Below, in pieces: positions 608 through 51,832 of a DNA stretch of 64,000 nt (its first letter is position 1; each line of letters starts with the position of its first letter). The translations under genes were made by a program, and so were the position numbers. A model generated the notes under the pieces. It was not told where the DNA came from, searched no databases, and saw nothing but the letters and a program-made list of their open reading frames with translations. The stretch spans positions 5,120,001-5,184,000 of the forward strand of contig CBDETK010000013.1 of the NCBI GenBank assembly GCA_965242865.1, read 5' to 3'. The stretch comes from Candidatus Latescibacterota bacterium (GTDB lineage Bacteria; Latescibacterota; UBA2968; UBA8231).

Positions 608-617
608 CAATTCTAAA

Positions 618-1184: not shown

Positions 1185-1701
1185 ATACGCGGCTAGTTTT
1201 TTTTATCTCAGCGCGCCGTGCGATCCCTTGGCGCGGGTCGGCTTGAGGCGAACGGCGGGCGTGGGGCTTCTTCCGACGATAGCCCGCCTGCGAGAGCAGA
1301 TCATAGTAACGCTGTGAGGAGCGATACACCACGCCAAACTGCGTTTGGATATAGGAGGCCAACGACGCCACCGAGGGCTGTGATGGGGTGGCTAACCAGC
1401 GGGTGATTTGCGCTCGCTGAGCAGCCGACAAATAGGACGGCGAGCCTTTATAGCCTAAGCGCAAGCATTCGACCCCCTCAGATAGATACCGCTTCTTCCA
1501 CGTACGGATGAACCCCGACGGAACGCCGAGCACCGCTTGAATCATACCTTGTTTGACCCCCAACAGAGTCATCTGAACCGCGACTGCACGTTTGAGTTCA
1601 CGGGCGTCGGGGTTGCTGGCGATAAAATCGGATAAAGAACGATCGGAAACCAGCTGAAAACACTCCTGAAAAAGGGACGATAGAAAACGAAACGACAACA
1701 T
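1075..1701 (-). CDS. IS630 transposase OrfA (HTH / winged-HTH)
   Basis: RELKRAVAV...WKKRY..EG...L.LGYKGS.SYL...YIQTQFGVVY.S motifs. An A8 run (1197-1204) links to OrfB by a +1 shift. Confidence 0.85.
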   Translation of the reverse strand: MLSFRFLSSLFQECFQLVSDRSLSDFIASNPDARELKRAVAVQMTLLGVKQGMIQAVLGVPSGFIRTWKKRYLSEGVECLRLGYKGSPSYLSAAQRAQITRWLATPSQPSVASLASYIQTQFGVVYRSSQRYYDLLSQAGYRRKKPHARRSPQADPRQGIARRAEIKKTSRVYARSPSGAFECLFCRRVASTLGGCLWVCWGPVRPTA

Positions 1702-1713
1702 AAAAAGAAAACC

Positions 1714-3606: not shown

Positions 3607-3642
3607 CTTGCTACTAAGAAGTGTGCGCCGTCATGCGAGATA

Positions 3643-12743: not shown

Positions 12744-14999
12744 TCAGGGCTGCTCGACAAAGCGGTGGAAGCGGTCGATTTCCAAGTCGGCATGCACTTG
12801 CTGCGCGCCGGAGGGCCAGCGGATTTCGAGGGTGTCAACGCGGGTGCGCGCCCCCAAGCCGAGGGCTGGTGCCAAGCTGTTGGACGACCCAAAGCCCGGA
12901 CCGCTGCTGACTTCGGCGACCCCGAGCAAATCTTGGGCGCGCCACCGCAACTGCGCGCCAATGGCTTGCGGACCCAAATCCACCCCGAGGAAGTGGTTGG
13001 GGTGGCCCTCGTTGCGGTACAGGCTGTTGGCCCACAGGTCGCCGGGGTAGTGGCCGCCGACCGCTGTATAGAGGTCGAGGTCGCCGTCGAGGTCGTAGTC
13101 GGCAAACCCCGCGCCGTGCCCCTTGCCCGGATTGCCCACGCCGGCCGCGACCGTGACGTCGGCAAAGCGGTCGCCGCGGTTGTGGAACAGCGCGTTAGGC
13201 TCAAAGCGCGTCATTAAGGGGCCGCCGTTGGTCAGGTAGAGGTCGATCTGGCCGTCGTAATCTACGTCGCCATAGCCCGCGCCCATTGAGCCAAAGGAGC
13301 GGGCCAGCCCCTGCTGCTGGGCGATGTCGCGGAAGGTGGCCCCGTCGTTGCGGTACAAATAGGCCCGGGTCGGCCGCAAGGCCAGCCCGGTGACCTGCGA
13401 CTGCACGATGTCTTCGTAGAAGTTCATGGCCGAGACGAACAGGTCGCGGTCGCCGTCGCCATCGCTGTCGATAAAAAACCCCACGTAGCTGCCCTCGCCC
13501 GGTTTGCCCACGCCGGCCGCGGCCGTGACGTCGCGGAAGGTGGCCCCGTCGTTGCGGTAGAGGCGGTTGGGGGCGGCCACGTCAATGGCGTAGAGGTCGC
13601 TGTCGCCATCGTGGTCGTAGTCGCCGCAGGTCACGCCGAGGGTTTTGCCGCGATAGGCCACGCCGGCGCGTGCGCCGCGGTCGGCAAAAGTGCCGTCGCC
13701 TTGGTTGTGGTACAGGCGATTGGGCCGCCCGCTGCCGGTGATGCCCGAGGCCACGTACAGGTCCGGCAGACCGTCGTTGTCGTAGTCGGTCCAGACGGCC
13801 ATGAAGCTGTCGTCGGCGCCGGCGACTCCGGCTTGGGGCGCGACCTCGGCAAAGGTCCCGTCGCCTCGATTGCGGTAGAGCGAATTGGGCGCGCGGCCCT
13901 CCCAAGCCTCGCGGGTGGCAAAGAGGTCCGGGTAGCCATCGCCGTCGTAGTCTGCGGCAATGGCCGCCCAGCCGCCGCGCGGGTCTGCGAGATCCGCGGC
14001 GGCCGACACATCGGCAAAGCGGCCCTCGCCGTCGTTGCGGTAGAGCGCGTGTGGGGCTTGGATGCCCGCGGCAAACAGGTCGGGGTCGCCGTCGCGGTCG
14101 TAGTCGAGCCACGCCACGCCGCGCCCCCGGTCGCGCTTGCCCACGCCGGTTGTTGCGGCCACATCGGTAAAGCGCACGGGCGACGCCTCGGCCAGCGGTG
14201 CCAAGCCAATCTGATAGGCCGGTTCGAGATCGCCCGGGTACGCGCCGTAAGCCTCGATGTAGGCCAGTCGCAGATTCCACTGGCGCACGGTGCGCTGGGG
14301 CGAGGCTGGCGGCAGGACATCGATGGCGCGCTTGTACGCGGCCACGGCCTCGGGATATTGGCGCAAGTGGTGGTGGGCCGCGCCCAACAGGAAGGATAGG
14401 TACACGTCGGTTGGCCGCTCGGCGAGCAAGCGGTCGAAGCGGTCGGCCGCGCCGGCAAAATCGCCCAAGCGCAAGAGCGAGGCCGCCTTGCCCGCCCGCG
14501 CTCGGTAGTGCTTGGGATCGACCGCGAGGATGGCTTCGTACTGGGCGAGGGCCCCCGCGGCGTCGGGTTGGTCTTGGGTCATCAGGAGGTCCGCGTACGC
14601 CATGCAGGCGACCGCGTTGCCCGGGAAGGCCGCCACGAGGGCGTCAAAAAGGGCGCGGGCCTCGGCTGGACGCCCGAGTTTGTCGAGGGTTTGGGCCAAC
14701 TGCAACCGGGCCTCCATGCGCTCGGGCGCGAGCTGTTGGGCGCGGGCGAGCGGCGCCAGGGCGCGTTGGTAGCGCCGTTGCCGCAGGTAGATTTCCCCCA
14801 GCGCGAGCGCGGCCTCGTAGTGCAGGGTATCGCGCCGGACGAGTGCTTCGAGGACGTGGGCGGCTGAGTCCAACCGGCCGGCCGCTCGGTGTTGGAGGGC
14901 CTGTTCGTAGCGTTGCGCGCTCTGCGCGGGAAGGGGCGGCTCAGAGGCACAGCCCACCAAGGCAGCGAGCGCGAGACCTAGGCTTGGCAGTGGATACAT
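12744..14999 (-). CDS. TPR + FG-GAP/VCBS repeat + ASPIC/UnbV (CRTAC1-like) lipoprotein
   Basis: Lipobox LVGC, N-terminal TPRs, repeated DYDxDGDxDL and LYRNxGDGTF motifs, C-terminal LG...VDTLEIRWPSG. Confidence 0.88.
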   Translation of the reverse strand: MYPLPSLGLALAALVGCASEPPLPAQSAQRYEQALQHRAAGRLDSAAHVLEALVRRDTLHYEAALALGEIYLRQRRYQRALAPLARAQQLAPERMEARLQLAQTLDKLGRPAEARALFDALVAAFPGNAVACMAYADLLMTQDQPDAAGALAQYEAILAVDPKHYRARAGKAASLLRLGDFAGAADRFDRLLAERPTDVYLSFLLGAAHHHLRQYPEAVAAYKRAIDVLPPASPQRTVRQWNLRLAYIEAYGAYPGDLEPAYQIGLAPLAEASPVRFTDVAATTGVGKRDRGRGVAWLDYDRDGDPDLFAAGIQAPHALYRNDGEGRFADVSAAADLADPRGGWAAIAADYDGDGYPDLFATREAWEGRAPNSLYRNRGDGTFAEVAPQAGVAGADDSFMAVWTDYDNDGLPDLYVASGITGSGRPNRLYHNQGDGTFADRGARAGVAYRGKTLGVTCGDYDHDGDSDLYAIDVAAPNRLYRNDGATFRDVTAAAGVGKPGEGSYVGFFIDSDGDGDRDLFVSAMNFYEDIVQSQVTGLALRPTRAYLYRNDGATFRDIAQQQGLARSFGSMGAGYGDVDYDGQIDLYLTNGGPLMTRFEPNALFHNRGDRFADVTVAAGVGNPGKGHGAGFADYDLDGDLDLYTAVGGHYPGDLWANSLYRNEGHPNHFLGVDLGPQAIGAQLRWRAQDLLGVAEVSSGPGFGSSNSLAPALGLGARTRVDTLEIRWPSGAQQVHADLEIDRFHRFVEQP

Positions 15000-15111
15000 G
15001 TTGCAGCGCATAGTGTACGAATTGAGCGGGGCGTTGGCGAGAGGCGGTTGATTCACCGCGTGTTGTGCGCTATACTGTTGCCGAATGAAAAACTCTGCGG
15101 AGGTACGCGCG

Positions 15112-21974: not shown

Positions 21975-22880
21975 CTAGGACAGGGTGTCGGCGCGGGAGC
22001 CGCTGAACAGCCATTCGAGCAAGCGTGGGCCAAAGTCGGGGGCTAGGTGCGGTACGTGCGCCCCTTGCTCGATGGTCCACAGCTCAATGGTGGCGTGGTT
22101 GCGGCAACCCGTGCGGTAGCGGGTGCGGATCGTCTCGGGGCCGTCGAGATCTTGGTCGAGGTCGAGCGGGGGCAAGGTTTCTGGCTCGGTGAGGTTGCAG
22201 CGGGCGAGCGCGGCCCAGCGCAGCGCGACCTCTTCCGCGCCAGCGTACTCCTGCTCGCCGGTGCTCCCGTCGTAGGCTATGACCCGGTCGGCCGTGCCGT
22301 GGATTTGCAGCACCGAGACCGGGGATGCAAGGGCACAACGCGAGGGGTCGCTAAAGGAGGTGCCGGCGAGGCTGGCAATGGCGACGAGCTTGGGGATGCC
22401 TTCGCAGGCGAGCCGGTACGACATAAAGCCGCCGTTGGAGTGCCCGAGGACGAAGACGCGCTCTACGGCGATATGCGTGGCGGCCTCTTTGAGCAGCCCG
22501 GCAAGGTACTGCACGTCATCGACTTGGGTGTTGTGGAGGTCGCAGCAAAAGTCCGTGGCGTTCCAGAAGCGATGGCCATCGGGATCATGTGTGCCATTGG
22601 CCATAATGAGGGCAAAGCGATCGGCGTTCACCCGCTTTGAGAGGCCAAAATAGCGGTCGTGCTCGGCCAAATGGCTGGTGAAGCCGTGCAGGCTGAGGAC
22701 GAGCGGAATGGGCGTTTTGGGGTCGTGCTCGGCTGGGAGGACTAGGAGGGCCGGGCGTTCGCCGCCCAACGTGTGGACGAGGTTATTTTGGCTCAAATTG
22801 TCGATCAAATCGTTCAGGGGCATTTCGCCGCAAGCGACGAGTATCAGAGACGACAGAGTAGCAAAAATGATTTTTTTCAT
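21975..22880 (-). CDS. PHB depolymerase/LpqC-like esterase lipoprotein
   Basis: Lipobox LVAC, LHGF, WNATDFCC, GHSNGG nucleophile elbow, IHGTAD, GAH. Confidence 0.88.
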   Translation of the reverse strand: MKKIIFATLSSLILVACGEMPLNDLIDNLSQNNLVHTLGGERPALLVLPAEHDPKTPIPLVLSLHGFTSHLAEHDRYFGLSKRVNADRFALIMANGTHDPDGHRFWNATDFCCDLHNTQVDDVQYLAGLLKEAATHIAVERVFVLGHSNGGFMSYRLACEGIPKLVAIASLAGTSFSDPSRCALASPVSVLQIHGTADRVIAYDGSTGEQEYAGAEEVALRWAALARCNLTEPETLPPLDLDQDLDGPETIRTRYRTGCRNHATIELWTIEQGAHVPHLAPDFGPRLLEWLFSGSRADTLS

Positions 22881-22965
22881 TTTGGCCCTCCTTTTCGTTT
22901 TCGAGCTACAAATTGACGAAGACAAAGGCCCACACGTAGGCGGCGAGTTCGCCCGAAGATCGGTT

Positions 22966-23776
22966 TATTGACCTCTGCATTTTTAATGGAATAGTTTATC
23001 TTCATTTATATGCGACCTATATATGCGACCTAAAGGTAGTGCCGATCGGCTAGCATATCGCCATCCATGGGCGGCTCCGTTGCTTGATGCCGGTCGAGGC
23101 GTCAACGAAGTAGCTCGTCTGGTTCAAGCCGCTCCCTCCTCGGTGTCTCGCTGGAAGGCGATTGGTGGAGTGGCCGCGGAGTAAAAAAAGCCCGGCAAAA
23201 AGGGATGACCATCGTCTGGATCGATCCGAGCGGCTTCAGGCTGCAACCGACCCGTCGTAGGACGTGGGCATTGTCGGGGCACACGCCGGTACACAAGGCG
23301 TGGGGGTGCCCCGATCGCTTGTCGGTCCAAGCCGCCGTTACCTTGCCGCCAAAACGCCAGCGGTTGGGCGTTTATTTTCGGTTGTATGAGCAGAATATCC
23401 ATACGCAGGATGTGGTATCCTTTGTCGGTCATATGATGGGCATGATACGCCGATACGCCGTACGATCGGGCTCATTTTGGATCGGTGGAGTGTGCATCGT
23501 GCGGCGGTGGCGACCCGGCAAAAAAGATACGCGGATTGACCCACCATCGAAAGGTTACCCGCCTATGCACCCGAATTGAACCCGGTCGAACAGGTCTGGA
23601 ATCATACCAAGTATGGGGACTTGGCCAACTTCATCCCCGATCCCATCGAGCACCTAGCCGACGGGGTCATGCCGTCGATGACCGCCCAGCATCACGATAA
23701 CCACCTGATCCGAGGCTTCTTCAAGTACGCTCAACTACCCCTGTAACGTATTCCTTTATTTTTGCAGAACTCAATA
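22966..23776 (+). mobile_element. Degenerate IS630-family element
   Basis: Imperfect 28-bp inverted repeats TATTGACCTCTGCATTTTTAATGGAATA vs TATTGAGTTCTGCAAAAATAAAGGAATA. Fragmented transposase: MRPKGS from 23023, IDPSGF...RRTWA, LPAYAPELNPVEQVW in different frames. Confidence 0.85.
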
Positions 23777-23811
23777 AACCACTTTTTGTTTATCGGCATA
23801 CACCCTTCCCA

Positions 23812-23893
23812 AGCCGTCCCAAATGACGCCTCTATGCAAAAAAGACGGAGTCGATGAACATTCCATGCTTGCAAGTCATTTAGGACGGCTATA
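23812..23893. mobile_element. Putative IS630-type MITE / long inverted repeat
   Basis: AGCCGTCCCAAATGAC (23812-23827) pairs with GTCATTTAGGACGGCT (23875-23890), one mismatch. Right end finishes GCTATA like the IS630 ends at 603/1744. Confidence 0.55.
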
Positions 23894-23897
23894 CCAA

Positions 23898-26800
23898 TCA
23901 CAAATACCCCAACAACACCGTAAAATAAGATTTCCACCGCCCCCGATCGCGCACCTCGTCAATCCCATAGGCCACATCCACCTGCACCCGCGTCGGCACG
24001 CTGTAATAAGAAATCAAGTCAAAGCGCAACTGGCCCCCTACATCCCGCAGCGGGCCGGCGCGTCCATACCGCGCATTCCATTCGCCGATGTTTCGGTCCC
24101 AAGCCTTGCCCATGCTGGCGTACACCGCGCCATACACTTTGTCGAAATACAACTGGGCCACGCGCTTGCCCACATTCGGCAGCACGGGAAAGCGGAGCGT
24201 CGCCGTGCCCATCAACGCCTTGCGTCCCTCAATGCTGTAAAAAGTATAGCCCTTCATAAAGTTGAGCCCGCCGAGGCGGTAGTCGAAGAAATTGCCGACC
24301 CGGGTCGTGTCGTTCACCGCGTCGCTGTCGATCCAGCCCCCGTACAGCCGCAGGCCCAAGCGGGTATTGCCGGGCATGCCGATGTGCTCTTTCCAATCAA
24401 CTGTAAACTGATTGTAGAACAGCTTGAGGTACTCCTCGTCGATAAAGGACGCCTGCTCGTTAAAGCCGTCGATGAAGTAGTTGAACATCCGGTCGTAGCG
24501 CAGGTAAAGCTGGCGGCCCACCGGGCTTATATCGCGGTCCCGCCGCCGCGCAATCATTTCCATCCGATAGGTCAGCCCCAGCCCAAAGCCATTGAGATAG
24601 GTATAGCCAAAGGGCCGCTGGGCGGTGCGCTCAAACCCAACCTCGCCGTCGCCTTGGCACACGAGGCAGTCGCTCTCGACGCTGGCATTGTAGCGGTCGT
24701 ACGTGGCCGAGGCCGTCAGATCTCCATGGCGGCCCAATTTGCCGCGCACCCCCGCGCTGAACTGACTCAAGCTGTAGTTGACCGCGTTGACAATGATCGT
24801 CCGCGCATCCACGCTATCGCCGCGGGCATCGCGCCGACTCTGGTTGGACACCTCCAAAAAGAACGTGGGACGGAATCCCTTGAACTCGTATAGGGCGAAC
24901 AAATCGCGGTCGGCGTTGGCCGGCGCAATGGCCGCCCCGGCAAAGACGCTCTGGCGATTGAGCACATCGCCGGAGGCGAGGTACGCGCCCACCTTGAAAC
25001 GCCCCTCGTCGAACAACAGCCGCGGCAGGATCCCGGTCTTGAGAAAGTCAATGCCGTAATTTTGGGGCGCGCTCGGCAACGCGGGCGCGGGCGTATCGCG
25101 CCAATCCCGCGTCGCGTCGTCGGAAAACCACGCCTCCTCGGTCGCAACCAGCATCCCCTCCTCCTGCAACCGGCGAATCTCAAAGCCAGCCGCCGTATAA
25201 GCCGCAAAGACGAGCTCGCCCTCCGGACCGACCGCTGGGCTGAACGCGCCGCCAATGGTGTTGGTTAGCTGCCGTAGCGACCGCGTTGCCAAGTGGAGGG
25301 CATAGATATTGAAAATGCCGCTGAAATCCGACGCAAAGACGAGCTCTGTGCCGTCCGCGCTCCACGTGGGGTCGCGGTCCGTACCGGGCGTTGCAATCCC
25401 AACTCGTAGAGGTCCGTCCGCGTCCCATTCCATCACGGCGATGTCGCGCTGGCCCGCGCGCCCGATGGCAAACGCCAGCCTGCGTCCGTCGGGCGAAAAG
25501 CGCGGGGTGTAGAGTTGGGTGCCGTCGGCGAACTGGGTTAGATAGCGCAGGCCGGTGCCGTCGGCCCGCATCACGGCCAAGTTGTTGCTCGTGCCCTTGT
25601 TTTGCACAAAGGCGATCCACTCGCCGTCGGGCGAATAGGTCGGGTACAGGGCGCGCAGCCCGCGCGTCAGCCGCTTGATGCGCGGCGTCTCCGGGGCCGA
25701 GCCGCTGACCATGGCCGGGACCAACCACAGCATCCCGCGCCAAAAGCTAGGGCCGGCGGCCGCGGAATCCCACTCGTAGATATCCGCCTGCCGCGACCCG
25801 TATTTGTCGGCCCGGTCAATGCGCGAAAAGAGCAGCTTGCGCCCGTCCGGCGACCAATCCACGGTCGACGCCGCGGCCGGAAAGGCCGCGACTTCCTCCT
25901 CGCCGGTCGTTAGGTCGCGCACGACCAAGCCGTGGGGGCCATGGTGCCGCTTGCCCGTTGACAGGTACGCCAGCTTCTCGCCGTTGGGGGCCAGCCGTGG
26001 CCGCAGGTTGGAAAAGCCAACATCCGCGAGCGGTTCGCCCTCGCGCCGCGGCCCCAACGCCGCTACCTGCGCCCAATAGCCCTGCCGCAGCGACTCGATC
26101 CACTCGTCGTACAGCGCGTCCGCGCTCTTGCCCAAGACCTTTTTGCACGCCGCATCAATCGCGAGGGTGTGCCACTGAGCCGCGGCTCGGTACAGCGCGG
26201 CGATCTTTTCTTCGCCGTAGGTCTCGGCGATGTAGCGCACCAAGCCAAAGCCGTGATCGTACACGTATTCATTGCCAAAGCCCTGCTTGCCAAAGACGCC
26301 CATCTGCTCAAAGGATAGCTGCTCGTCGGCCAGCACCAAGGAGCGGAGCACCATGTCGCGGTTGGCATCCCAGCGGTCGTGCCCGGTCGTTGCAGTCCCG
26401 TACTGGGCCGCGCCCTCGGCCAGCCACATGGGCACCACCGTCCCCATCACGGGGTAGGAGGCAATCGCGTCTGGATAGCCGGTGAGAATGTCCTTGCGGT
26501 TTTTCTCCCGCTGGTAGCCAAAGTACTGCAAGTAAAGAGCGGGGACGCGCTGGACGCCTTTGCGGGCCGCGCCCAGCGAAACGATGTGGGCAAATTCGTG
26601 GGTTATGACGTTGCGCAGCCAATCCGAGCTGCCGCGCAAGTCAAAGTCGTGGTCGAGCGACGTGGTCCAAATCTCAATGGTGTCTTGATAAAAAAAAGCC
26701 GCGCCATTGGCGTAATCGTCGTGGTCCTTGAGCACGATCCGCACCCGCCCGCCGGGCGCGTACCCATACAGCTCGGTAATGGGCGCGTACGCGGCTTCGG

Positions 26801-26957
26801 CAATGCGCGCCGCCCGCGCCGCGGCCCCGGCCAACCCCTCGTGGTAGAAAACTCGGAAGTGCTCGGTCTCCACCACCAGCCACGCCAGTTCCGGGTGGTT
26901 TTGGCCCAGCGACGCGCTCGCCCAGCCGAGCACCAGCCACAACGCCCACCCCCTCAC
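23898..26957 (-). CDS. Outer-membrane protein: gluzincin (peptidase MA-like) + TolB/PD40 propeller + Omp85/BamA-like barrel
   Basis: Signal peptide, NHPEL.W..ETEHF, THEFAH...WLAEG, multiple WSPDG/FSPDG repeats, C-terminal amphipathic strands with LGG..MKGY. GTG start at 26957. Confidence 0.8.
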   Translation of the reverse strand: MRGWALWLVLGWASASLGQNHPELAWLVVETEHFRVFYHEGLAGAAARAARIAEAAYAPITELYGYAPGGRVRIVLKDHDDYANGAAFFYQDTIEIWTTSLDHDFDLRGSSDWLRNVITHEFAHIVSLGAARKGVQRVPALYLQYFGYQREKNRKDILTGYPDAIASYPVMGTVVPMWLAEGAAQYGTATTGHDRWDANRDMVLRSLVLADEQLSFEQMGVFGKQGFGNEYVYDHGFGLVRYIAETYGEEKIAALYRAAAQWHTLAIDAACKKVLGKSADALYDEWIESLRQGYWAQVAALGPRREGEPLADVGFSNLRPRLAPNGEKLAYLSTGKRHHGPHGLVVRDLTTGEEEVAAFPAAASTVDWSPDGRKLLFSRIDRADKYGSRQADIYEWDSAAAGPSFWRGMLWLVPAMVSGSAPETPRIKRLTRGLRALYPTYSPDGEWIAFVQNKGTSNNLAVMRADGTGLRYLTQFADGTQLYTPRFSPDGRRLAFAIGRAGQRDIAVMEWDADGPLRVGIATPGTDRDPTWSADGTELVFASDFSGIFNIYALHLATRSLRQLTNTIGGAFSPAVGPEGELVFAAYTAAGFEIRRLQEEGMLVATEEAWFSDDATRDWRDTPAPALPSAPQNYGIDFLKTGILPRLLFDEGRFKVGAYLASGDVLNRQSVFAGAAIAPANADRDLFALYEFKGFRPTFFLEVSNQSRRDARGDSVDARTIIVNAVNYSLSQFSAGVRGKLGRHGDLTASATYDRYNASVESDCLVCQGDGEVGFERTAQRPFGYTYLNGFGLGLTYRMEMIARRRDRDISPVGRQLYLRYDRMFNYFIDGFNEQASFIDEEYLKLFYNQFTVDWKEHIGMPGNTRLGLRLYGGWIDSDAVNDTTRVGNFFDYRLGGLNFMKGYTFYSIEGRKALMGTATLRFPVLPNVGKRVAQLYFDKVYGAVYASMGKAWDRNIGEWNARYGRAGPLRDVGGQLRFDLISYYSVPTRVQVDVAYGIDEVRDRGRWKSYFTVLLGYL

Positions 26958-29686
26958 TGACTCACCGCCATTTTGACCACGGCTTCTGCGCGCCGCCCAT
27001 CGTCGCCGTGCGCGATCAACCGGCACAGGTACAGGCCGCTGGCATAGCCTTCTACCGACCAAGCGATTTCGCGCTCGCCGGCTGCCAACCCGTCGCGGCG
27101 AAGCCGGCCGACGCGCTTGCCCAACGCATCGACCACCGCCAATTCGACGCGCCCGGCCGCACTCAGCGCAAAGCGCAATCGCGCCTCCTCCCCGGGGCCG
27201 ACTGGATTGGGATAGCAATAGACTCGGGTTAGCAGCACCTCCTCGGACCGCACAACGGGTCGGCCTGCGACCAGCGCGGTCCGCGACCCGGCCGCATCGG
27301 CCCCGGCCTGCGGCCAATGGACCGGGCCGCCCGCGTACTGGGCCGCCACCCTTTGCAGATCCCACGCATACAGGGCCTCGCCATCCAAGGCCGCTAGCAC
27401 CCAGCGGCCCGTGCCGTCTAAGTCCCATATCACGGGCGACGCCGTCGGAGGCACGGCCATCAGCAGGGGAAAGCCCGGCAAGAGCCGCCCATCGTCTTCC
27501 ATCCCGAAAATTCCGCTGTGACCGGCCACGAATATCTCCTGCTTGCCGTCGGCATCTACGTCGCCAAGCACCGGCTCAAACCCGAGCTCGCCGACCTCAG
27601 CAACACGCGGCAGGGCCGCGGGAAAGTTGGCTTGGCGCAATCCGTCCGCTCGCAGGGCGTGTATCACCCCACCGCGCGCCAGCAAAACCACCTCCAACAG
27701 ACCATCGCCGTCCAAATCGCCCAACACCGGCGGCGCGACGAGCGAATCGCCCAACTTGACGACATTCGCTCCGATCGTCACCTGTCCTCCGGCCGTGGCA
27801 AAGACCTGCTCGGCTTGGCTGTCGCCGTCCAAATCGCCCGTTGCCGAGGGCACCACCAGCGACCTTTGCTCCTTTAACTCGCCGCTCGTAGCATCTAGCG
27901 CGTAGGTCTGTTCCGCGCCAGCCAGCAGTAGCAGCGAGGCCCCCGTGCCCGCTGCGGCCTCCGCGGCCAACGGCCCCTCGTCCAACATGCGCTCCCACCG
28001 CGGCTGGTCCGCGCCGGCCTCCCATGCGCTGACCTCGGCACCGCGCCGCAAAAAAATCACGCCATCCCCAGCCGCCAGCAGCCGCGCCTCTGGCACGCGC
28101 CACGACGCCACCCCGCTGCCGGTCGCATAGCCGACGCCTCCCCCGACCTCAAAGAGCAACTCATCCACTCCGTCGCCATCCAAATCGGCCGCTTGTAGCC
28201 GGCCGTCGCCCGGCAAATCCCGCGGCCAGCCCGGACGCCCGCGCCCAAAGCGTATCGCCACCTGCATGGTATCGCCGGGCGCGGAAAGCACTTCTATTTC
28301 AATGCCGGTCTCCCACTCCCGATTGCTGCGCGAATCGGGCCGAGTCGCCGGGCCGAACCGCGTCTGTCCGCCGACGAAAAATGGGTCGTCGGCCTCCCCA
28401 TTGACTTGCCGCTCCCACGCACGGCGCGGATTGCCAATGTCGCGGTACCCGTCGGCCTCTTCCAAGGCAATGCCCGGCCAGTGCGGCTGATTGTTCACAG
28501 CACTGGGGTCCGCAGCGCGCGCCATCACGCCCTCGTCTATGTGCCATATCAGCACCCCGGATCCCGGGACGAAGGCGTCGTATTCCTCCACCGCCACCCA
28601 CACGCTCTCGTCTAGGGCGACTTGGTCGGGGTCGATCCACACCTTCCCCTCGTCCTCCGCGACGCCGGGTTGCCCGCGCTGCTGCCTGTTTTCCAGCAAG
28701 AAGTATTCGTGCGCGTCAATGGGGATGCGCACGGCCTTGGGGAAGTCGCCGCTGCGGTCGGTCGCTAGCAGCGTTAGGACCGTGTCGCGCCGCACCACCA
28801 CCGGCTCCAGCCACCCGAGCTGCGCCTTGCTCCAAGCCATGGGGTGCGGCGGTGCAAAGCCAACTACCCACGCGAGACTGTCGGTCCGCACGTAGCCCAA
28901 AGCGTTGTTCCCCACGTCCATCAGGCTCCAACCGCCCAAGGCCGGCAGGCCATCGGCGAAATTGGACAATCCGGGCAACCCCAACTGGTGGCCGAAGAAC
29001 TTGGCCAGCAAGCCATTGAGCCCGGCCCGGCCGTTGAGGCTGGGCGACTCCGGCAAGATCCACGCCTGCGCGATCTCCGCTCCGCCCACGATCAACGGAC
29101 CGCCGTTAAAGCGCACAAAATCGCTTTCGGACAAAAAGACCGAGCGGATGTCGTTCAGTTGACCGTTCTCGTAGCCTACGCCGGCGTGGAACACGAGGAA
29201 GCTGTTGAATTCGTCCAAGCGCGGGCCAGCGGGATCGGCCAGCACGGCGCGGAGGGCATCGCGCAACAACTCGATCCACTTCGCGCCGATCTCCTCGGTC
29301 GTGCGTCCGTTGCCGTAGTGGAGCATGGGTTGGTCGAGCGCGTACGCCTGCCGCATGGCGCGGGGGAAGACCTCGGCCGAAATCGCCACCTGACCGGCGG
29401 AAACGACCTCGTAGTAGCGAGCCAGTGCGGTCAGATGCCGCTCGAAGTAAGCGCGGTCGTGCGGCGGCAGGTCGTAGGGAAGCGCGTACTCCGCAGCCGC
29501 TTCCTCGGCCGAGCGCAAGTCAAAGGCCCCGACGCCCGTCGTCGTCGGCTCGTCGGGATTCTCGCGCGGAAAATCCACGCGCAAGGCCAAAACTCGCCAT
29601 TCGGCCTCGGCCCCGGTGGGAGCCGACGCGAGCAGGGTGCAGCAGAAGCCTAAGAGGAGCTCGACGCGACAACAAAAGCGTCCGAT
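26954..29686 (-). CDS. M6 (immune inhibitor A)-like pseudo-protease with FG-GAP repeats and T9SS-type C-terminal domain
   Basis: ALRVDFP, FHAG.G, KFFGHQLGLP, WSLMD.G, AWSK..LGW, EYFLLENRQ, GVLIWHIDE, DLDGDG repeats, YCYPNP...ASGLYLCRL. The frame extends to an ATC at 29686 with a signal peptide. Confidence 0.82.
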   Translation of the reverse strand: MGRFCCRVELLLGFCCTLLASAPTGAEAEWRVLALRVDFPRENPDEPTTTGVGAFDLRSAEEAAAEYALPYDLPPHDRAYFERHLTALARYYEVVSAGQVAISAEVFPRAMRQAYALDQPMLHYGNGRTTEEIGAKWIELLRDALRAVLADPAGPRLDEFNSFLVFHAGVGYENGQLNDIRSVFLSESDFVRFNGGPLIVGGAEIAQAWILPESPSLNGRAGLNGLLAKFFGHQLGLPGLSNFADGLPALGGWSLMDVGNNALGYVRTDSLAWVVGFAPPHPMAWSKAQLGWLEPVVVRRDTVLTLLATDRSGDFPKAVRIPIDAHEYFLLENRQQRGQPGVAEDEGKVWIDPDQVALDESVWVAVEEYDAFVPGSGVLIWHIDEGVMARAADPSAVNNQPHWPGIALEEADGYRDIGNPRRAWERQVNGEADDPFFVGGQTRFGPATRPDSRSNREWETGIEIEVLSAPGDTMQVAIRFGRGRPGWPRDLPGDGRLQAADLDGDGVDELLFEVGGGVGYATGSGVASWRVPEARLLAAGDGVIFLRRGAEVSAWEAGADQPRWERMLDEGPLAAEAAAGTGASLLLLAGAEQTYALDATSGELKEQRSLVVPSATGDLDGDSQAEQVFATAGGQVTIGANVVKLGDSLVAPPVLGDLDGDGLLEVVLLARGGVIHALRADGLRQANFPAALPRVAEVGELGFEPVLGDVDADGKQEIFVAGHSGIFGMEDDGRLLPGFPLLMAVPPTASPVIWDLDGTGRWVLAALDGEALYAWDLQRVAAQYAGGPVHWPQAGADAAGSRTALVAGRPVVRSEEVLLTRVYCYPNPVGPGEEARLRFALSAAGRVELAVVDALGKRVGRLRRDGLAAGEREIAWSVEGYASGLYLCRLIAHGDDGRRAEAVVKMAVSQ

Positions 29687-29696
29687 TGGAACCCCC

Positions 29697-30752
29697 TCAG
29701 AAAGTGATGTTCATGGAAATTGGCGTATTGTCGCCCACCACAGCCGTGTCGCCTAGGCCGATTATATACGCCACATCAAACTGGAAGCGATTGTATTTTA
29801 GACCGACGCCAAAGGCACTGGTACTGGCCTCGCCGTCGTAATCGTATGAAAGCCCGGCGCGCAACGCGATAAACGCCTCGTCCTCGTGCGCGGAAAGCCC
29901 GTATTTGTATTCGCCGCCCACTTGCAGGTCGATCTCCTTGAACTCGTTGTTCAAGCCCTCGTCGGCCCAGGCCTTGGCCAAGTTGCCGACAAAAGACCCA
30001 TCGGCAATCAGAGGTTTGTACAGATCAAAAGAGAGCATCAGATCGTTGTATTGGGTGTCCATGACCTCGTAGGCCATCCCGACGACGATGTGCTGGGGCA
30101 GCGGATCGGCCTGTGCCGCGTCGATGTAGGCGATCTTGGGGCCTAGGTTGCGCAGGGCCGCGCCCAAGCTAAAGCTGGGGACGGGCCGCCATAAAAAGCC
30201 CAAATCCGCGGCAAAACTGCTGCCCGTGCCATCGCCCTGCTCAATGCCGGCCCCTTGATTGGCCAAGCGGCTGTAGATGAACTTCAAGCCAATGCCAGCG
30301 GACATGGTAGCACTGATCTGCGCCCCGTAAGCCGCCGACAGCGCCATGTCGTAACTGCGGAACGTACCTAGCACGTCGCCGCGCTCGCCCGTGCGCGTCT
30401 GCTCGCCGAGGTTGAAGAACGTGATGTTGAGACCTAGGTTGCCCCAGCCTTCCACGGGCATAGAATAGGCCAGAAACTCGTAGGACAGGTCGTCGGCCAG
30501 CTTGGGCAACCACGCGGTGTGGGAAAAGTGGAGCTTTTTCTTCTTTTGCCCGACGAGCGCGGCCGGATTGAAGTACGTCGCCGTGGCGTCGTCGGCCACC
30601 GCCACGTACGATTCGCCCATGGCAATGGCGCGGGAACCCGGATTGATCAACAAAAGAAGCGGGGCACTGCGGCTTTCGGGCGTGGCCCAAGCCCCATCGG
30701 GCACTGCGCCCGCGCAAAGGCCGGCCAGCAGCAGGGTCGTCAGTTTCCTCAT
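29697..30752 (-). CDS. porV: PorV-family outer-membrane beta-barrel (T9SS shuttle)
   Basis: LLINPGSRAIAMGE..VA.ADDA.A.YFNPA, WLP.LADDL, F.SYD.A.S..YG, NLGPKI.Y...DPLP, terminal Phe. Confidence 0.88.
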   Translation of the reverse strand: MRKLTTLLLAGLCAGAVPDGAWATPESRSAPLLLLINPGSRAIAMGESYVAVADDATATYFNPAALVGQKKKKLHFSHTAWLPKLADDLSYEFLAYSMPVEGWGNLGLNITFFNLGEQTRTGERGDVLGTFRSYDMALSAAYGAQISATMSAGIGLKFIYSRLANQGAGIEQGDGTGSSFAADLGFLWRPVPSFSLGAALRNLGPKIAYIDAAQADPLPQHIVVGMAYEVMDTQYNDLMLSFDLYKPLIADGSFVGNLAKAWADEGLNNEFKEIDLQVGGEYKYGLSAHEDEAFIALRAGLSYDYDGEASTSAFGVGLKYNRFQFDVAYIIGLGDTAVVGDNTPISMNITF

Positions 30753-30848
30753 AGCAGAGTCCTCCTCAGCTAAAAATAAGATATGAAAACGATGCCTCCT
30801 AAGTACTAAGGCGATCTCACTGCTGCAAAAGCACTCCTCTCGCCATGC

Positions 30849-33800
30849 TCACTGGGCGACCTGCAAAACGGCGCGACGCGCCACCGCAGTGCCGCTTTCC
30901 CGCTCGGCTTCTATCCGGCAAATATACGCGCCATTGGCCAAGCCCGCCGGTGGCGTCCAAGGCACTTGGTTGTACCCGGCGCGCGTCGGTCCGTCCAGCT
31001 GGTCGATCAGCCTACCAGCCAGCGAAAAGACCGTTATCTGCACGGCGCGCATGTCGCCTGCTAGCTCGTACGTGAAGTAGCCGCTGTCGCGCATGGGATT
31101 CGGGTAAAATAGGACCTTGGCCAAGCCGGCATCTTCTGGGGCGTCCCCAACCGACACCGACACCGTCGCCCGCGACGAATTGTTGAAGTTGTCCCAGGCC
31201 TTCAGGCGGATTTCGTGTTGGCCGGTTTCCAGCTCGGGCAGAGGAAATTCAACCACGCCCTGCCGGTAGTCGCCGCCCTGTACGCTGAACAGGTCCGTCA
31301 AGGTGAAGAGCTCGCCGTCAATGGTCAGCTCGATTTCGTGGCCGGTCTCGCCAGTGATGTTGATGCCGCTGGGGTCTGCAATCGAGGCCCGCAATACCGT
31401 CTGCCGCGGAATGGTGCGGCCGTTGGCCCCCTCAAAGCGCAGGGAAATGTCCGGCCCTTCCACATCCGTTTCTACGCCTTGGGCCGTGCCCGCCAGCACC
31501 AACCCTTCAACCGCGCCGAGGGCGGCCGGGCTGTCATCGCTCCAGACGTACGCGCTGATGCGGCCGTTGTTCCCGCCGTAGGTGATGTCTTTAGGGACCC
31601 GAAACGCGGCCTTGAACCGGCCCTCAGCCACTGAAAAGCGGCCGCGAAAGATGGGAGCCCCGGTCTGCTGGTAGGTAAAACCTTCCAAATCGCTCTCTTC
31701 GCTTGAATCAAAGGCTTGCAACCACACTTGGCCTGTATAGGCGGTGGCCGGCGCACCAGCCGCGTCGAGAACTTGGCCGGCGACGACCACTTCGCCGAGG
31801 GCGCGGAGCGAATCGGGCACTGCGAGCTGCACCTGAAAGCGCGGCAGGGCCAAGCGCGTGGCCGGGTCGCCAAAGAGCGAGTAGCGCTGGACGTTGCGGA
31901 ACGTTTTGGGGCCGGTGGGAGAATACTTAGGCAGCAGCACTTGCTTGGCCTCGGCGAGGGCCAGCCCAATCGGCACGTGCTGCCGCCCGGTGTGGTATAG
32001 CTGCCGGTAGAACTGGTTGGCCAACTGGACATTGGAGTCGTGATAGCCGATGCGGGTCGCGCAAATCATGCCGATCACGCCTCCATCCTCCTTCAGCAGA
32101 AGTCCCTCCGGCATGGAGAGGCGCACGGGATCGTCGAACACCCCAACTTGACTCGCAGCCGTAAAAAACAAGGGCAGGCGCCCGCCGTTGTTGAGCTTGT
32201 CCAAATCGCGGGAAAGCAAGAACAGGCTCTCGTGGGCCAAGCGGTCAAAGCTGCCGTGCCCCAAGTAGGTCAAAATGAGCGAGCCTTTGTTGAAGAGCCG
32301 GATAAACTCGTCCCGCGCCCGCGGCTTTTCCCGCCCCTCTAGGGGGAATTGGGCGACGTAGAGCTTGGTCAGGTCTAGCACTTCGGGCAGGACGCGCCGG
32401 GCCATGTATTCGCTATCGCGGATGAAGAACGACTCGACCCGGCTCGGCTTGTCGCGATTGAGCAAATCGTCCGAGACCAGCAGCACTTGGCTCTGCCAAG
32501 GCCCCCATTCGGGGGCGTGGTCGTAGGCGATGATTTTGTCGGCCAGCGCGTCGGCCGAGGCCGCCGTCTGCACCGGCAGCCGACCAATGGCCAGATCGGG
32601 GTACAAATCGCCGCCCACCACGCGCGTGTACCATTCGTCGTATGTGCTGTCGCCGTCTTGGTATGCTGGGATCCAATTGCCTTGGCTAATGGACGAATTG
32701 TTCTTGTAGTCGTACGAGCCGTCGCCCACCAAGGCCACGAACATGGGCGCGGGCTCCCAGTGCTCAACCGCGTACGCGAGAAAGTTGCGGATCGCGGCCG
32801 GGTCCAACAGCCCGCCGGAAAATTCGTCGTAGATGTCTTGCACGTCGATCGCCACCGCTTGCAGGGGCCGGCCGAAGCGGTCGTCGGCCGCTCGCCAGCG
32901 CGCCAAGCGCTCGGCCGCGGCGCGAAAATCGCGGTGGTAAATCGCCACCCAATCGGCTCCCCGCGCCGCGGTTGCCAAGTGGCCGGGCGCGTCGAGCTCG
33001 ATTCGCACCGGGCGCTTCCAAGTGCCGCCGACCGCGTACTGGCGCGGCTCATCCCCGGGCCGATCCTGAAACGCTACAACCCCGTCTTGCGCTCCGTACT
33101 CAAAATCCACGACCTCGGCCAACCCGGCCGAGACCTCAAAGACGCGCGGCCGCTCGGCGGCAAAACCAGTGAGGCGAAATTGGGTGGGGCCGGTCAGCGG
33201 ATAGGTGAAGAGCAATTGACCGCGCTCGGCGACAAAGCCGCGGCTGTACTCCACTTCGTACCAGTCGAAGCGGGCCGGACTACCCGAGTGAACGATCCCC
33301 AAGTGGTTCAGCCCCTCCTGCGCTCCGAGCGCGGCCCACAGCGTATCGGATGCAACGTAGCGCTGGTCCGGCAGTTCGTCTGGGGTAAAAGCCACCGTGC
33401 CGATGGCCGCTTCGTTCCAGCGCACCGAAAACCGCGGCTGCGCCTCCGAGCTCCTGATAAAACCCAAGCGCACCGCCACCGGCTCGGGCGCGGCCTGCCG
33501 CACCACCACCGGAAAATTGCGCGCATTGCCGCGAAAATCCTCCCAGTACCAAGTGTAGCCAGACTTGATGCTAAAGAGCTGGGTGAGGACGAACTGCTCG
33601 GCTTCCTCGTGGATTCGCACCCGATAACTCGTGGGCTGCTGCGGGTCGGACGCGGTTAAGGCGCCGCTCCGCTGCTCGGGCCGCCGCCCTGCTACCCCAC
33701 CGCCAAACCCCAGCCAGTACGCGTTCTCGTGCGTGTAGAGGTTGTGCCGATATTGGAATGAGCGGCTAGCTGGCGCGTATTCCCAGCGGCTGACCGGCTC

Positions 33801-34586
33801 GGCCCAAAACAAGACGAAATCGTCCGCGTCCAAGCGGCCATCGCCCCCGTCTTCTACGGCCAAGCCCACTTCCGACAGGGCCTGGGGCGGGGCCGCCTCG
33901 CTGAGGGACAAGGCTTTGCCGCCGCCGTAGTACAGGCGCAAACTCGCCGGCTCGATGTCGCCGAGCGCCACCCCAGCGGCCTCAAGGTCGGCGCCCGATA
34001 TGCGGTACATTCCCTCTTCCAAGACGAAGACCCGCAGCCACGTTCCGCTCTGCAACGCGGCCTTGGGTGCCGGACGTTGCTTGAGCGGCAAGCGCCAGTT
34101 CCGAGCTTGCTCGGGATTGACGAGCACCCCTCGGTAGAATGCTTCGCCCCAAGGGTCGGCAACGCGGGTGCCGCCGCTGCCGGTCACGTGTAAATCAACC
34201 ACGATGCGATCGTACAGGGTGCGCGTTCCGTCCGCCTCGACGCGGGGAGCAAACGCCACCGGAACGACGCGCTGACGCCGCGCAAAACCGCTCTCCCCGA
34301 GGACGACCGGCGCGGGCGTGGGCGCGTCGTCAGCCGCCGCGCGGTCGGTCCGCGCCACGTGGGCTTCGACCAACTCCAAGCGAACCTGTCCATCGCTGGG
34401 GACGCCGATTAAGGCACTGCGCCCCTGCTCCAATTCTCGGCCTTCGGGACGCCAAACCAACCGCACGCGCTGGGGCGTCTGCTCGCTTACGTGTAGCTCG
34501 GCTAGGGCCGCACTCCCGCAAAAAAGCGCGAGCACCCAAAAACAGCATTTGAATCGTATGAAAGTGGTATAGGTGGGATGGGTCAT
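30849..34586 (-). CDS. porU: PorU-like C25 (gingipain-fold) T9SS sortase
   Basis: EEGMYRI, IYDEFSGG..DP.AIRNF, LVGDGSYDYK, IGRLP, YLGHG, LFGDPA, F.VPKDI.Y, D.EGP.I, D.SGIN.TG..GH, KAWDNFNNS, YPNP CTD. Confidence 0.9.
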   Translation of the reverse strand: MTHPTYTTFIRFKCCFWVLALFCGSAALAELHVSEQTPQRVRLVWRPEGRELEQGRSALIGVPSDGQVRLELVEAHVARTDRAAADDAPTPAPVVLGESGFARRQRVVPVAFAPRVEADGTRTLYDRIVVDLHVTGSGGTRVADPWGEAFYRGVLVNPEQARNWRLPLKQRPAPKAALQSGTWLRVFVLEEGMYRISGADLEAAGVALGDIEPASLRLYYGGGKALSLSEAAPPQALSEVGLAVEDGGDGRLDADDFVLFWAEPVSRWEYAPASRSFQYRHNLYTHENAYWLGFGGGVAGRRPEQRSGALTASDPQQPTSYRVRIHEEAEQFVLTQLFSIKSGYTWYWEDFRGNARNFPVVVRQAAPEPVAVRLGFIRSSEAQPRFSVRWNEAAIGTVAFTPDELPDQRYVASDTLWAALGAQEGLNHLGIVHSGSPARFDWYEVEYSRGFVAERGQLLFTYPLTGPTQFRLTGFAAERPRVFEVSAGLAEVVDFEYGAQDGVVAFQDRPGDEPRQYAVGGTWKRPVRIELDAPGHLATAARGADWVAIYHRDFRAAAERLARWRAADDRFGRPLQAVAIDVQDIYDEFSGGLLDPAAIRNFLAYAVEHWEPAPMFVALVGDGSYDYKNNSSISQGNWIPAYQDGDSTYDEWYTRVVGGDLYPDLAIGRLPVQTAASADALADKIIAYDHAPEWGPWQSQVLLVSDDLLNRDKPSRVESFFIRDSEYMARRVLPEVLDLTKLYVAQFPLEGREKPRARDEFIRLFNKGSLILTYLGHGSFDRLAHESLFLLSRDLDKLNNGGRLPLFFTAASQVGVFDDPVRLSMPEGLLLKEDGGVIGMICATRIGYHDSNVQLANQFYRQLYHTGRQHVPIGLALAEAKQVLLPKYSPTGPKTFRNVQRYSLFGDPATRLALPRFQVQLAVPDSLRALGEVVVAGQVLDAAGAPATAYTGQVWLQAFDSSEESDLEGFTYQQTGAPIFRGRFSVAEGRFKAAFRVPKDITYGGNNGRISAYVWSDDSPAALGAVEGLVLAGTAQGVETDVEGPDISLRFEGANGRTIPRQTVLRASIADPSGINITGETGHEIELTIDGELFTLTDLFSVQGGDYRQGVVEFPLPELETGQHEIRLKAWDNFNNSSRATVSVSVGDAPEDAGLAKVLFYPNPMRDSGYFTYELAGDMRAVQITVFSLAGRLIDQLDGPTRAGYNQVPWTPPAGLANGAYICRIEAERESGTAVARRAVLQVAQ

Positions 34587-34639
34587 TTTAGCGTTTTTAA
34601 GGTCATTCCAAGCCCCTTTTTTGTCAAGGGCGTCTCGCC

Positions 34640-34668
34640 TTGACTTATCGGCTCAGGGCCGCTACGTT
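34640..34668 (+). promoter_or_regulatory. Putative sigma70 promoter for rpmB
   Basis: TTGACT-17 bp-TACGTT in the divergent porU/rpmB intergenic region. Confidence 0.5.
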
Positions 34669-34694
34669 TAATAGTTTCTTACAGGGAGAAACTC

Positions 34695-34922
34695 ATGGCC
34701 AGACAATGCAGCCTGACCAATGTTAAGGGCCTAGTTGGCAACAACGTCAGCCACTCGCAGCGCAAAACCAAGCGCGTCCAACAGCCCAACCTCATCAAAA
34801 AGCGCATCTTCATTCCCGAGAAAAACCGCACCATCACCCTCCGCCTGACCGCCCGCGCCCTGCGTACCTTAAACAAAAAAGGCGTCTATCAGTTCCTGAA
34901 AGAAAAGGGAATCGAGGTCTGA
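34695..34922 (+). CDS. rpmB: 50S ribosomal protein L28
   Basis: MARQC.LT......GNNVSHS.RKTKR...PNL...I.LRL.ARALRT. Confidence 0.97.
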   Translation: MARQCSLTNVKGLVGNNVSHSQRKTKRVQQPNLIKKRIFIPEKNRTITLRLTARALRTLNKKGVYQFLKEKGIEV

Positions 34923-34938
34923 GCGGCCCGGCGCGCTT

Positions 34939-36054
34939 ATGAACCGAGGCGACGACCCAGCCGACGCCATCCAAGAGCGAGTTCGCCAAGCCCTAGCCGA
35001 AAACGCGGCCTTAAAAATTTTTGCCGGCCGCACCAAGTCCTTTCTCGGACGCCAACACCCCGGCATCCCCCTCGACCTCTCCGCTCTAACCGGCATCGTC
35101 AGCTACGAGCCAGACGAGTTGGTCCTAGTGGCCCGCCCGGGCACCAAGCTGAGCGAAATAGAAGCCCTGTGCCATAGCGAAAACCAGTACTTTGCTTTTG
35201 AGCCGCCCGCTTGGGGTGCGGCTGCGACCATCGGCGGCACTGTGGCCTGCAACCTTTCGGGGCCGCGGCGGTTCAAGATGGGGGCCCTGCGCGATCACTT
35301 GCTCGGCGCCGAGTTGATCGACGGTCGCGGCGAGCGAATTCGCACCGGCGGCAAAGTCGTCAAAAACGTCACCGGGTACGATCTAGCCAAAGTGCTGGCC
35401 GGTTCCTTTGGAACGCTAGGGGTGCTTACCGAGGTTTGCCTCAAGGTCTGGCCCCGCCCGCAAACCCAAGCCACCCTGTTCATGCACCGGCCAACGCCGG
35501 CCGCGGCGTTGGAGCGAATGCTCAACTGGGCCGCGCGGCCCCTCCAAATCACCGGCCTAGTCTGCGATGCCGACCGGCTAGCCGCCCGCGTCGAAGGCCC
35601 GACGCCCGCGGTGCGGCAGCAGCTAGCCGCGCTGTGCGCCGGAGAATCCGCCGAGTCCGAGGTCGTGGAAGAAGCCGAATCACAAGCCTTTTGGCGGTGC
35701 TGGCGCGAGCTCGAATGGCTGATGCCGGCCACCGGCCAACAGCGCTGGCGCTTTTCTGGGCCGCCGACCCAGATGGTGCCGCTCATGGAAGCCTTAAAGG
35801 CCGAGGGGCTGAGCCGCTGGGGGTTGGACTGGGCCGGCGGCCTGCTGTGGGCACTTTTGCCGGTAGCCGCCCCAGCCGCCCGCTTGCACCGCACCGCAGC
35901 CCACCACCAAGCCCTCGGCTGGCGCTTTGCCGCCGACGAACGCAACGAAGACGCCTTTACCCCGCTCCATGCCGGCGCGGCGCGCATGAACCAAATGCTC
36001 AAGCGCGCCCTTGACCCCCAAGGCATTTTCAACCGCGGCAAACTGTACGCCTAA
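34939..36054 (+). CDS. glcE: Glycolate oxidase FAD-binding subunit GlcE-like
   Basis: YEPDELV, FEPP..G..ATIGG..A.NLSGPRR, GGKVVKNVTGYDL, LK.ALDP.GIFN.G. Confidence 0.85.
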   Translation: MNRGDDPADAIQERVRQALAENAALKIFAGRTKSFLGRQHPGIPLDLSALTGIVSYEPDELVLVARPGTKLSEIEALCHSENQYFAFEPPAWGAAATIGGTVACNLSGPRRFKMGALRDHLLGAELIDGRGERIRTGGKVVKNVTGYDLAKVLAGSFGTLGVLTEVCLKVWPRPQTQATLFMHRPTPAAALERMLNWAARPLQITGLVCDADRLAARVEGPTPAVRQQLAALCAGESAESEVVEEAESQAFWRCWRELEWLMPATGQQRWRFSGPPTQMVPLMEALKAEGLSRWGLDWAGGLLWALLPVAAPAARLHRTAAHHQALGWRFAADERNEDAFTPLHAGAARMNQMLKRALDPQGIFNRGKLYA

Positions 36055-51704: not shown

Positions 51705-51832
51705 AATAATTTAGCTCCTTAGAGGCTATATGAAGTGGCCAGCCGTCATTGACGCGGTGTATGAAAAGCGTCTAGCGCTATCAACACCCCGTAGAGGCTG
51801 TTGCGGAAGCCATGCTACCAGCCACAGACCGG

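Follow-up and report, generated by a model that had tools for sequence, protein, structure and literature searches.

We analyzed a 64,000-nucleotide stretch (the window) from the genome of a Candidatus Latescibacterota bacterium, hereafter G000 (6.0 Mb assembly, 93.6% complete; the window corresponds to C13:5120001-5184000, C13 standing for contig CBDETK010000013.1). Four long open reading frames (ORFs), closely spaced and all in the same orientation on the minus strand (23898-34586), encode homologues of PorU and PorV from the T9SS (type IX secretion system), an apparently inactivated M6-like protein (M6i) and a peptidase-propeller-Omp85 fusion (MAomp). We consider it rather probable that this region represents the leading four-gene portion of a conserved outer-membrane cluster associated with the T9SS, i.e., an accessory module of the Latescibacterota and not a stand-alone system. 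An earlier interpretation made from the letters only (the sequence-only reading) had described four co-oriented, tightly packed genes with these domains in an organism outside the Bacteroidota. The coordinates and family matches confirm this description, and the organism belongs to the Latescibacterota, placed by the NCBI taxonomy in the FCB group. The genes and their main parts are the following.

30849..34586, minus strand: porU, 1245 aa, C25-family T9SS sortase homologue with a type A C-terminal domain (CTD)
29697..30752, minus strand: porV, 351 aa, outer-membrane barrel of the PorV/PorQ family
26954..29686, minus strand: M6i, predicted signal peptide, M6-like domain with a dead metal site, FG-GAP beta-propeller, linker and seven-strand CTD
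28988-29002 and 26957-27223, minus strand: parts of M6i, the KFFGH motif (from motif comparison) and the CTD (from CTD alignment)
23898..26957, minus strand: MAomp, signal peptide, MA-clan zinc peptidase, TolB-like six-bladed-type PD40 propeller and predicted 16-strand Omp85-type barrel
about 26415-26600, minus strand: HEFAH and WLAEG of MAomp, the gluzincin motif

Conserved linkage and a split cluster

Loci were collected by aligning MAomp homologues, which gave 195 relatives on one-genome-per-species contigs; the best 80 of these 195 loci were kept (labelled L), and the conservation of the module was tallied within the Latescibacterota. The closest loci, with up to 92% protein identity, come from Candidatus Latescibacterota metagenome-assembled genomes, some of which are labelled Gemmatimonadetes. 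Across the phylum the four genes remain next to each other. Seventy-seven loci had sufficient flanking sequence to score M6i; in 75 of them it was located immediately upstream of MAomp, and in L084 and L085 it was 1.5-2.2 kb away. The porV gene was present within 2 kb upstream of M6i at every locus (65/65) and within 450 nt at 55 of them, and porU lay directly upstream of porV in 47/63 loci. The 16 porU-less loci belong to a clade at approximately 42% MAomp identity, in which a 449-aa gene is inserted between porV and M6i. MAomp was more conserved than its neighbors at the same loci, e.g., with 56% identity at L042 compared to 48% for PorU and 45% for M6i.

In G000, porV starts 96 nt downstream of porU, and the start and stop codons along porV, M6i and MAomp overlap or are separated by approximately 10 nt. 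MAomp starts at the GTG at 26957, overlapping the M6i stop codon (GTGA); an ATG listed at 27428, upstream in a frame that overlaps M6i, is not the start. The first canonical start of M6i is a TTG at 29590, preceded in frame by a signal-peptide-like stretch and a GAGGGGG site, and no ATG, GTG or TTG is found ahead of the signal-peptide-like stretch. Because of this GAGGGGG site, the spacing to the porV stop codon and the signal-peptide-like N-terminus, M6i likely starts at a non-canonical ATC at 29686, approximately 10 nt past the porV stop, in agreement with the length of its homologues (900-980 aa). Such a stable adjacency of MAomp, M6i and porV, together with the overlapping codons, is unusual for genes of unrelated functions.

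In the relatives, the cluster continues past MAomp with three additional genes, d1, d2 and d3, whereas in G000 remnants of a transposase occupy the place of these next cluster genes.

downstream of MAomp in relatives: d1 and d2, about 300 aa and about 205 aa, paralogous small proteins with a PGWGQ motif
downstream of MAomp in relatives: d3, about 540 aa, MA-type protease-like (Peptidase_MA_2-like) protein with a CTD
23205..23746, plus strand, directly downstream of MAomp in G000: remnants of a DDE_3 (IS630-like) transposase, ORF fragments, DDE_3 E 2.5e-5

The d2 protein gave a weak match to DUF5683 (E 0.0026). Of 65 loci, 47 had d1 no more than 600 nt from MAomp and 64 had it no more than 6 kb away; d3 was no more than 7 kb away in 58 of 59. 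G000 carries d1-d3 intact, on the same strand, at C13:5226574-5229729, outside the window and approximately 83 kb from MAomp. In this genome the cluster, of 6-7 genes, is split, and the four genes described here make up its front part. At the same downstream junction of MAomp, the closest relatives contain variable inserts of 0.7-3.4 kb, e.g., methylase-like genes, and this junction therefore looks like an insertion hot spot.

The four proteins

PorU passed the cut-off of the NCBIfam PorU equivalog NF033707 (623.9 bits, cut-off 420) and matched Pfam Peptidase_C25 with 256.6 bits. Against TIGR04183 (cut-off 23), its CTD gave 21.1 bits when the protein was scanned and 26.6 bits when the genome was. 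As expected for the T9SS sortase PorU, the protein possesses its own type A CTD and its gene is adjacent to porV. In comparison with the Porphyromonas gingivalis PorU structure (PDB 6za2), the histidine of the GHG motif, His777, is kept and TAAS stands opposite TATC. Ser812 (codon AGT, 32151-32153) occupies the position of P. gingivalis Cys690, described as the catalytic residue in PMC5121618, and the C25 His/Cys dyad is not found in the window protein.

The AGT codon is one base from TGT. Among the 46 related loci covering the site, serine was kept in 45, the sole cysteine being that of L090 (GATCS), and TAASQVGVFD or a near variant was likewise present in 45 of the 46, over a range of 48-89% PorU identity. 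We also examined the 150 nearest representatives of the C25 domain clustered at 50% identity: 130 possessed His and Cys and 12 possessed His and Ser, all 12 falling among the closest relatives. Two of the representatives, AASAVGQF and AACAVGQF, differ here by the Ser/Cys residue only. No other conserved cysteine was observed near Ser812, and a migration of the nucleophile to Cys842 was rejected, as this residue is a cysteine in only 22 of the 46 loci. Searches of G000 for a second C25 gene or a second PorU gave none, leaving the serine PorU as the only C25 gene found, and no other C25 gene was found in two near-complete members of the genus, G083 (one contig) and G091 (three contigs). The conservation of the motif, the pair of representatives differing by Ser/Cys only and the lack of another C25 gene in these searches suggest that the serine looks selected rather than decayed. 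Moreover, the presence of this sole C25 gene alongside 96 CTD matches in G000 argues that the serine PorU is functional or else that the CTDs are removed by another enzyme.

The phylum commonly encodes a second PorU-like C25 protein (L101-L103, L105, L106), which is longer (approximately 1800-2000 aa) and retains both His and Cys (GHGS … LSCLNG). It scored 205-248 bits, under the PorU cut-off. In the genus of the window this long form was detected in three of eight genomes and is missing from G000, G083, G085, G091 and G117. The clade with the porU-less cassette carries the long Cys form only, and the cut-off of the PorU model was reached in none of the three genomes tested.

The assignment of PorV holds at the family level: the protein scored 230.4 bits against the PorV/PorQ family NF033709 (cut-off 90) and 65.8 bits against Pfam PorV (cut-off 27), compared to 155.1 bits against the PorV equivalog NF033710, whose cut-off of 250 was not reached. 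About eight further PorV/PorQ-family paralogues are encoded in G000.

The best family match of M6i was NF052323 (T9SS-dependent M6-like inactivated metalloprotease), with 283.3 bits for an equivalog cut-off of 600; the relatives at L068 and L090 reached 355 and 397 bits, and the model evidently derives from a different lineage. Like the members of that family, M6i combines an M6-like domain that has lost its active site with a type A CTD. Matches to TIGR03296 (76.7 bits) and FG-GAP_3 (42.4 bits) were also obtained. The M6 zinc site HExxH reads KFFGH in M6i, and (K/R)(F/L)Fxx replaces it in all 70 orthologues covering the site, whereas seven M6-type paralogues of G000 keep HE[YF][GA]H. Since the motif is replaced throughout the orthologues, M6i is, as judged from its residues, not a peptidase. 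The two CTD-bearing protease folds thus both show the altered active sites noticed in the sequence-only reading, Cys to Ser in PorU and HE to KF in M6i. The last 100 residues of M6i align with the CTD of PorU (31% identity, E 8e-9). Its AlphaFold2 model (pLDDT 79.7) comprises a signal helix, the M6-like domain, one propeller, a linker and a seven-strand CTD. By Foldseek, this model matched the zymogen of the M6 peptidase InhA2 (immune inhibitor A; 4yu5_B/4yu6_B, TMq 0.32, approximately 695 columns); PorZ was not among the matches listed, which does not exclude a PorZ likeness. The M6i sequence gave no match to solved structures at E<=1.

In the MAomp protein, the residues H120, E121, H124 and E181 (THEFAH … WLAEG) are invariant in 64 of 64 aligned sequences. 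The intact gluzincin motif announced by the sequence-only reading for the fourth gene, HExxH with a downstream Glu, is therefore present, and E181 is probably the third zinc ligand. The PD40 match scored 77.4 bits, and the Peptidase_MA_2 match, at 31.8 bits, fell just under its cut-off of 32.4; a paralogue of MAomp reached 65.9 bits against the same model. In the AlphaFold2 model (pLDDT 83.2, pTM 0.83), an alpha/beta region covers residues 1-300, a propeller residues 308-604 approximately, and 16 long strands residues 642-1016. By VIA-align, the propeller superimposed on TolB (1c5k_A) with a Z of 25.9, a root-mean-square deviation (rmsd) of 2.7 over 240 residues and 24% identity; MAomp reached 114 bits against the TolB equivalog, compared to a cut-off of 343. 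The barrel superimposed on BamA of D. radiodurans (8xnb_B) with a Z of 21.0 and an rmsd of 5.1 over 317 residues.

Pfam Omp85 (PF01103) gave no match at E<=1 with MAomp of the window itself. The same model matched 6 of 25 C-terminal domains of orthologous MAomp proteins (best E 5.4e-9) and two MAomp paralogues of G000 above the gathering score, and the MKGY of MAomp aligns with the LRGY of an Omp85-passing paralogue. On the basis of the orthologue matches, the 16-strand model, the BamA alignment and this MKGY/LRGY correspondence, the barrel is modelled as a 16-strand barrel of Omp85 type, within the Omp85 superfamily. No family match to POTRA domains was obtained in MAomp, and in the model the propeller ends near residue 604 and the barrel begins near 642. 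The profile of the barrel did not match any solved structure at E<=10; the matches listed for the whole model (Foldseek, VIA) were filled up by propellers and did not place the peptidase domain, and a crude count of amphipathic strands in the barrel was too noisy for use. A class of WD40-Omp85 proteins was catalogued in 2014 and noted to resemble a fusion of BamA and BamB (Heinz and Lithgow, PMC4104836). MAomp shares with it a TolB-like propeller N-terminal to an Omp85 barrel and no detected POTRA. In contrast, the passages of PMC4104836 on this class do not mention an MA-type peptidase or a link to the T9SS, and the 'Metallo' Omp85 class of the same paper, which carries PF00149, is a different protein.

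The T9SS of the genome and the role of the module

The T9SS components of G000 were searched, and SprA, GldL and GldM also in a sample of 121 Latescibacterota genomes (labelled G). Components of the T9SS outside the Bacteroidota are acknowledged in reviews (PMC11285876, PMC11205867), and SprA is described as FCB-specific (PMC12611786). We identified SprA in G000 with TIGR04189 at 481.9 bits (607 bits with a neighboring match in the same frame; cut-off 200).

C13:2954268-2960636 (L093 8268-14636): SprA (SprA/Sov), 2122-aa frame, 2.2 Mb from the four-gene region

This gene is isolated, oriented divergently from the neighboring lptF and lptG, and no other T9SS gene lies beside it. SprA was detected in 120 of the 121 phylum genomes, over the cut-off in 115. 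In G000 the type A CTD model gave 96 matches, 94 of them over the cut-off. Two arrays of CTD genes were observed, at C13:3158002-3203556 (approximately 20 CTD matches) and 367180-408543 (approximately 13), each made of similar genes of about 700-900 aa ending in a CTD; they look like expanded cargo families.

As the sequence-only reading had noted, the window itself contains no SprA or GldK-like match. In the whole genome, GldL (TIGR03513) and GldM (TIGR03517) gave no match at E<=0.001, PF12081 none at E<=0.1, and no match was found for GldN; over the phylum, no genome reached the cut-off for GldM (0/121, one weak match) or GldL (0/121, three weak matches). These negatives, obtained with models trained on Bacteroidota and without a T9SS-positive control, in a genome 93.6% complete, mean that the Gld proteins were not found and not that they are absent. 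GldK gave partial matches only (20-69 bits, cut-off 350), of the generic sulfatase-maturase type, and such GldK-type matches also arise in the control genomes of B. subtilis, Caulobacter and Methanosarcina. The best match of the PorQ model reached 129.7 bits (cut-off 220; C13:1448425), and a scan with Reg_prop yielded one 550-aa frame also carrying a CTD match.

Overall, these results do not describe the minimal T9SS-like cassette proposed by the sequence-only reading, as SprA and 96 CTD matches are found elsewhere in the genome and the cassette is part of a larger cluster. That reading had set against itself a complete canonical T9SS accompanied by unlinked M6 and Omp85-like genes; we found the linkage of these genes to porV conserved and no complete canonical T9SS, as GldL, GldM and GldN gave no match.

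According to the accessory-module reading, CTD-bearing cargo would cross the outer membrane through SprA, then be collected by PorV, and its processing would take place at the surface in a complex centered on PorU and PorV. PorU belongs to a clade in which Ser812 and His777 most likely form the nucleophile pair. For M6i and MAomp, we infer the following roles. M6i would be exported via its own CTD and may act as a non-catalytic surface partner or represent an abundant cargo. The barrel would anchor MAomp in the outer membrane, and this protein may take part in assembling the complex, or may trim or remove proteins bearing a CTD or fragments of the CTD. The attachment complex of P. gingivalis, PorU-PorV with PorZ-PorQ, resembles this arrangement in the adjacency of porU and porV and in the C25 fold and CTD of PorU. 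It differs in that PorU has here a serine for Cys690, no PorQ match reached the cut-off and a protease-Omp85 fusion has no counterpart there. M6i recalls PorZ as a second CTD-bearing, non-catalytic, propeller-containing protein. PorZ of P. gingivalis possesses two propellers and retains its CTD (PMC5121618), whereas M6i has a dead M6 domain, one FG-GAP propeller and an unstructured-looking linker before the CTD.

Several points weigh against the accessory-module reading. Co-location is the only functional link of M6i and MAomp to the T9SS, and none of the three MAomp paralogues of G000 lies beside T9SS genes, which fits a general envelope role. That the peptidase and propeller of MAomp would face the periplasm is a prediction drawn from how other Omp85 proteins carry their N-terminal domains. 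Clan CD enzymes are usually inactivated by Cys-to-Ser changes, so that PorU may be dead. In addition, many relatives possess the second, longer PorU-like protein with its cysteine intact. Finally, the linker preceding the CTD of M6i (residues 791-815, approximately 25 residues) has a pLDDT under 50, and an unstructured linker is, in P. gingivalis, a mark of cargo that is cleaved and not of retained components such as PorZ (PMC5121618). Because of this resemblance to the linker of cleaved cargo, we rate M6i as a putative abundant surface cargo or adaptor above a PorZ equivalent.

The first alternative is that MAomp, as an Omp85 protein carrying its own protease and a TolB/BamB-like propeller, and the small membrane proteins downstream of it constitute a general factor of outer-membrane biogenesis or quality control, merely co-transcribed with porUV and lacking any role specific to the T9SS. 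The three paralogues of the same architecture encoded elsewhere in G000 speak for it:

C13:1825988-1828684 (L097), 4362677-4364221 (L098) and 4960825-4964049 (L096): MAomp paralogues, peptidase/PD40/Omp85

One of them adjoins a BamB-like (PQQ_2) gene and another a small TPR gene; the likeness of WD40-Omp85 proteins to a BamA-BamB fusion (PMC4104836) and the alignment of the MAomp barrel to BamA (Z 21.0) point in the same direction. Nevertheless, 75 of 77 loci have MAomp directly after M6i and 65 of 65 have porV upstream, clades at only 42% identity included, and this adjacency, together with the overlapping stop and start codons, would be unusual for unrelated functions. We regard a general factor as unlikely.

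Somewhat less likely still, the serine PorU could be a dead scaffold, with the CTDs removed by a metalloprotease of the cluster, either MAomp or d3. This proposal draws on the substitution of Ser for Cys in the only C25 gene of a genome with 96 CTD matches, on the invariant HExxH…E of MAomp and on the CTD-bearing, Peptidase_MA_2-like d3 that the cluster of the relatives adds. However, MAomp and M6i also accompany a PorU with cysteine (L090) and occur in clades with only the Cys PorU-like protein, and they are thus not a compensation for the serine change; besides, a dead site would not require the conservation of His777 and of the whole Ser812 motif.

That the Omp85 barrel would itself translocate proteins, as some Omp85 members (PlpD, TpsB proteins) do (PMC4104836), within a T9SS-like system of minimal or ancestral kind, appears very improbable: GldL, GldM and GldN were not matched in the genome and GldL and GldM did not reach the cut-off in 121 phylum genomes, but the full-length, 2122-aa SprA, with SprA in 120 of 121 genomes, means that the barrel need not supply the translocation suggested by the sequence-only reading, and the cassette belongs to a larger cluster.

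Beyond the accessory-module reading itself, a bolder proposal, which we hold to be doubtful, is that of a SprA-based T9SS without a GldLM-type motor, in which the serine PorU, MAomp and a dead M6 adaptor would form a cargo-processing station. MAomp would then be a core component of the T9SS, so far unrecognised and widespread in the FCB group, and not an accessory; a PorU using serine would be, to our knowledge, the first natural serine variant in clan CD. The mechanism of the T9SS is known almost wholly from Porphyromonas and Flavobacterium, and the present cluster brings forward at least three conserved proteins, apparently unstudied, that accompany porV and porU in a sister phylum. In this phylum, SprA and roughly one hundred CTD matches per genome go together with no recognisable GldLM motor. 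If these proteins are part of the machine, they bear on cargo processing and attachment outside the Bacteroidota, on the role of an Omp85 barrel that carries a protease instead of POTRA domains, and on whether serine can serve as the nucleophile of a clan CD sortase. The M6-like member was already named by NCBI curators; new here are a serine PorU as the only C25 gene found, a divided cluster, and a pattern of SprA without GldLM throughout the phylum. In the literature, we found no published study of the porU-porV-M6i-MAomp cluster, of a T9SS in the Latescibacterota or of a serine PorU.

Flanking genes and minor observations

The flanking genes are housekeeping genes (MnmG, SecDF, IleRS, LspA). 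A small gene, read by eye from its translation, is divergent from porU:

34695..34922, plus strand: 75 aa, putative ribosomal protein L28-like

Its position is kept in relatives: of the 80 loci searched by tblastn, 39 had a match to this gene upstream of porU. A scan of 22000-36000 against Rfam gave nothing at the gathering score. A promoter and terminator scan of 23000-35200 was uninformative, with 3 promoter-like sites for 2.3 expected and 7 terminator-like sites for 13.6 expected. The G+C content, about 0.63 elsewhere in the window, dips to 0.50-0.55 at positions 1-4000 and 50001-52000, and the second dip covers part of a MacB/FtsX-type permease gene (49311-51704). At 12744-15056, on the minus strand, the window also encodes a 770-aa TPR / FG-GAP / UnbV_ASPIC protein, and a similar protein is found beside the MAomp paralogue in L096 (3304-5562).

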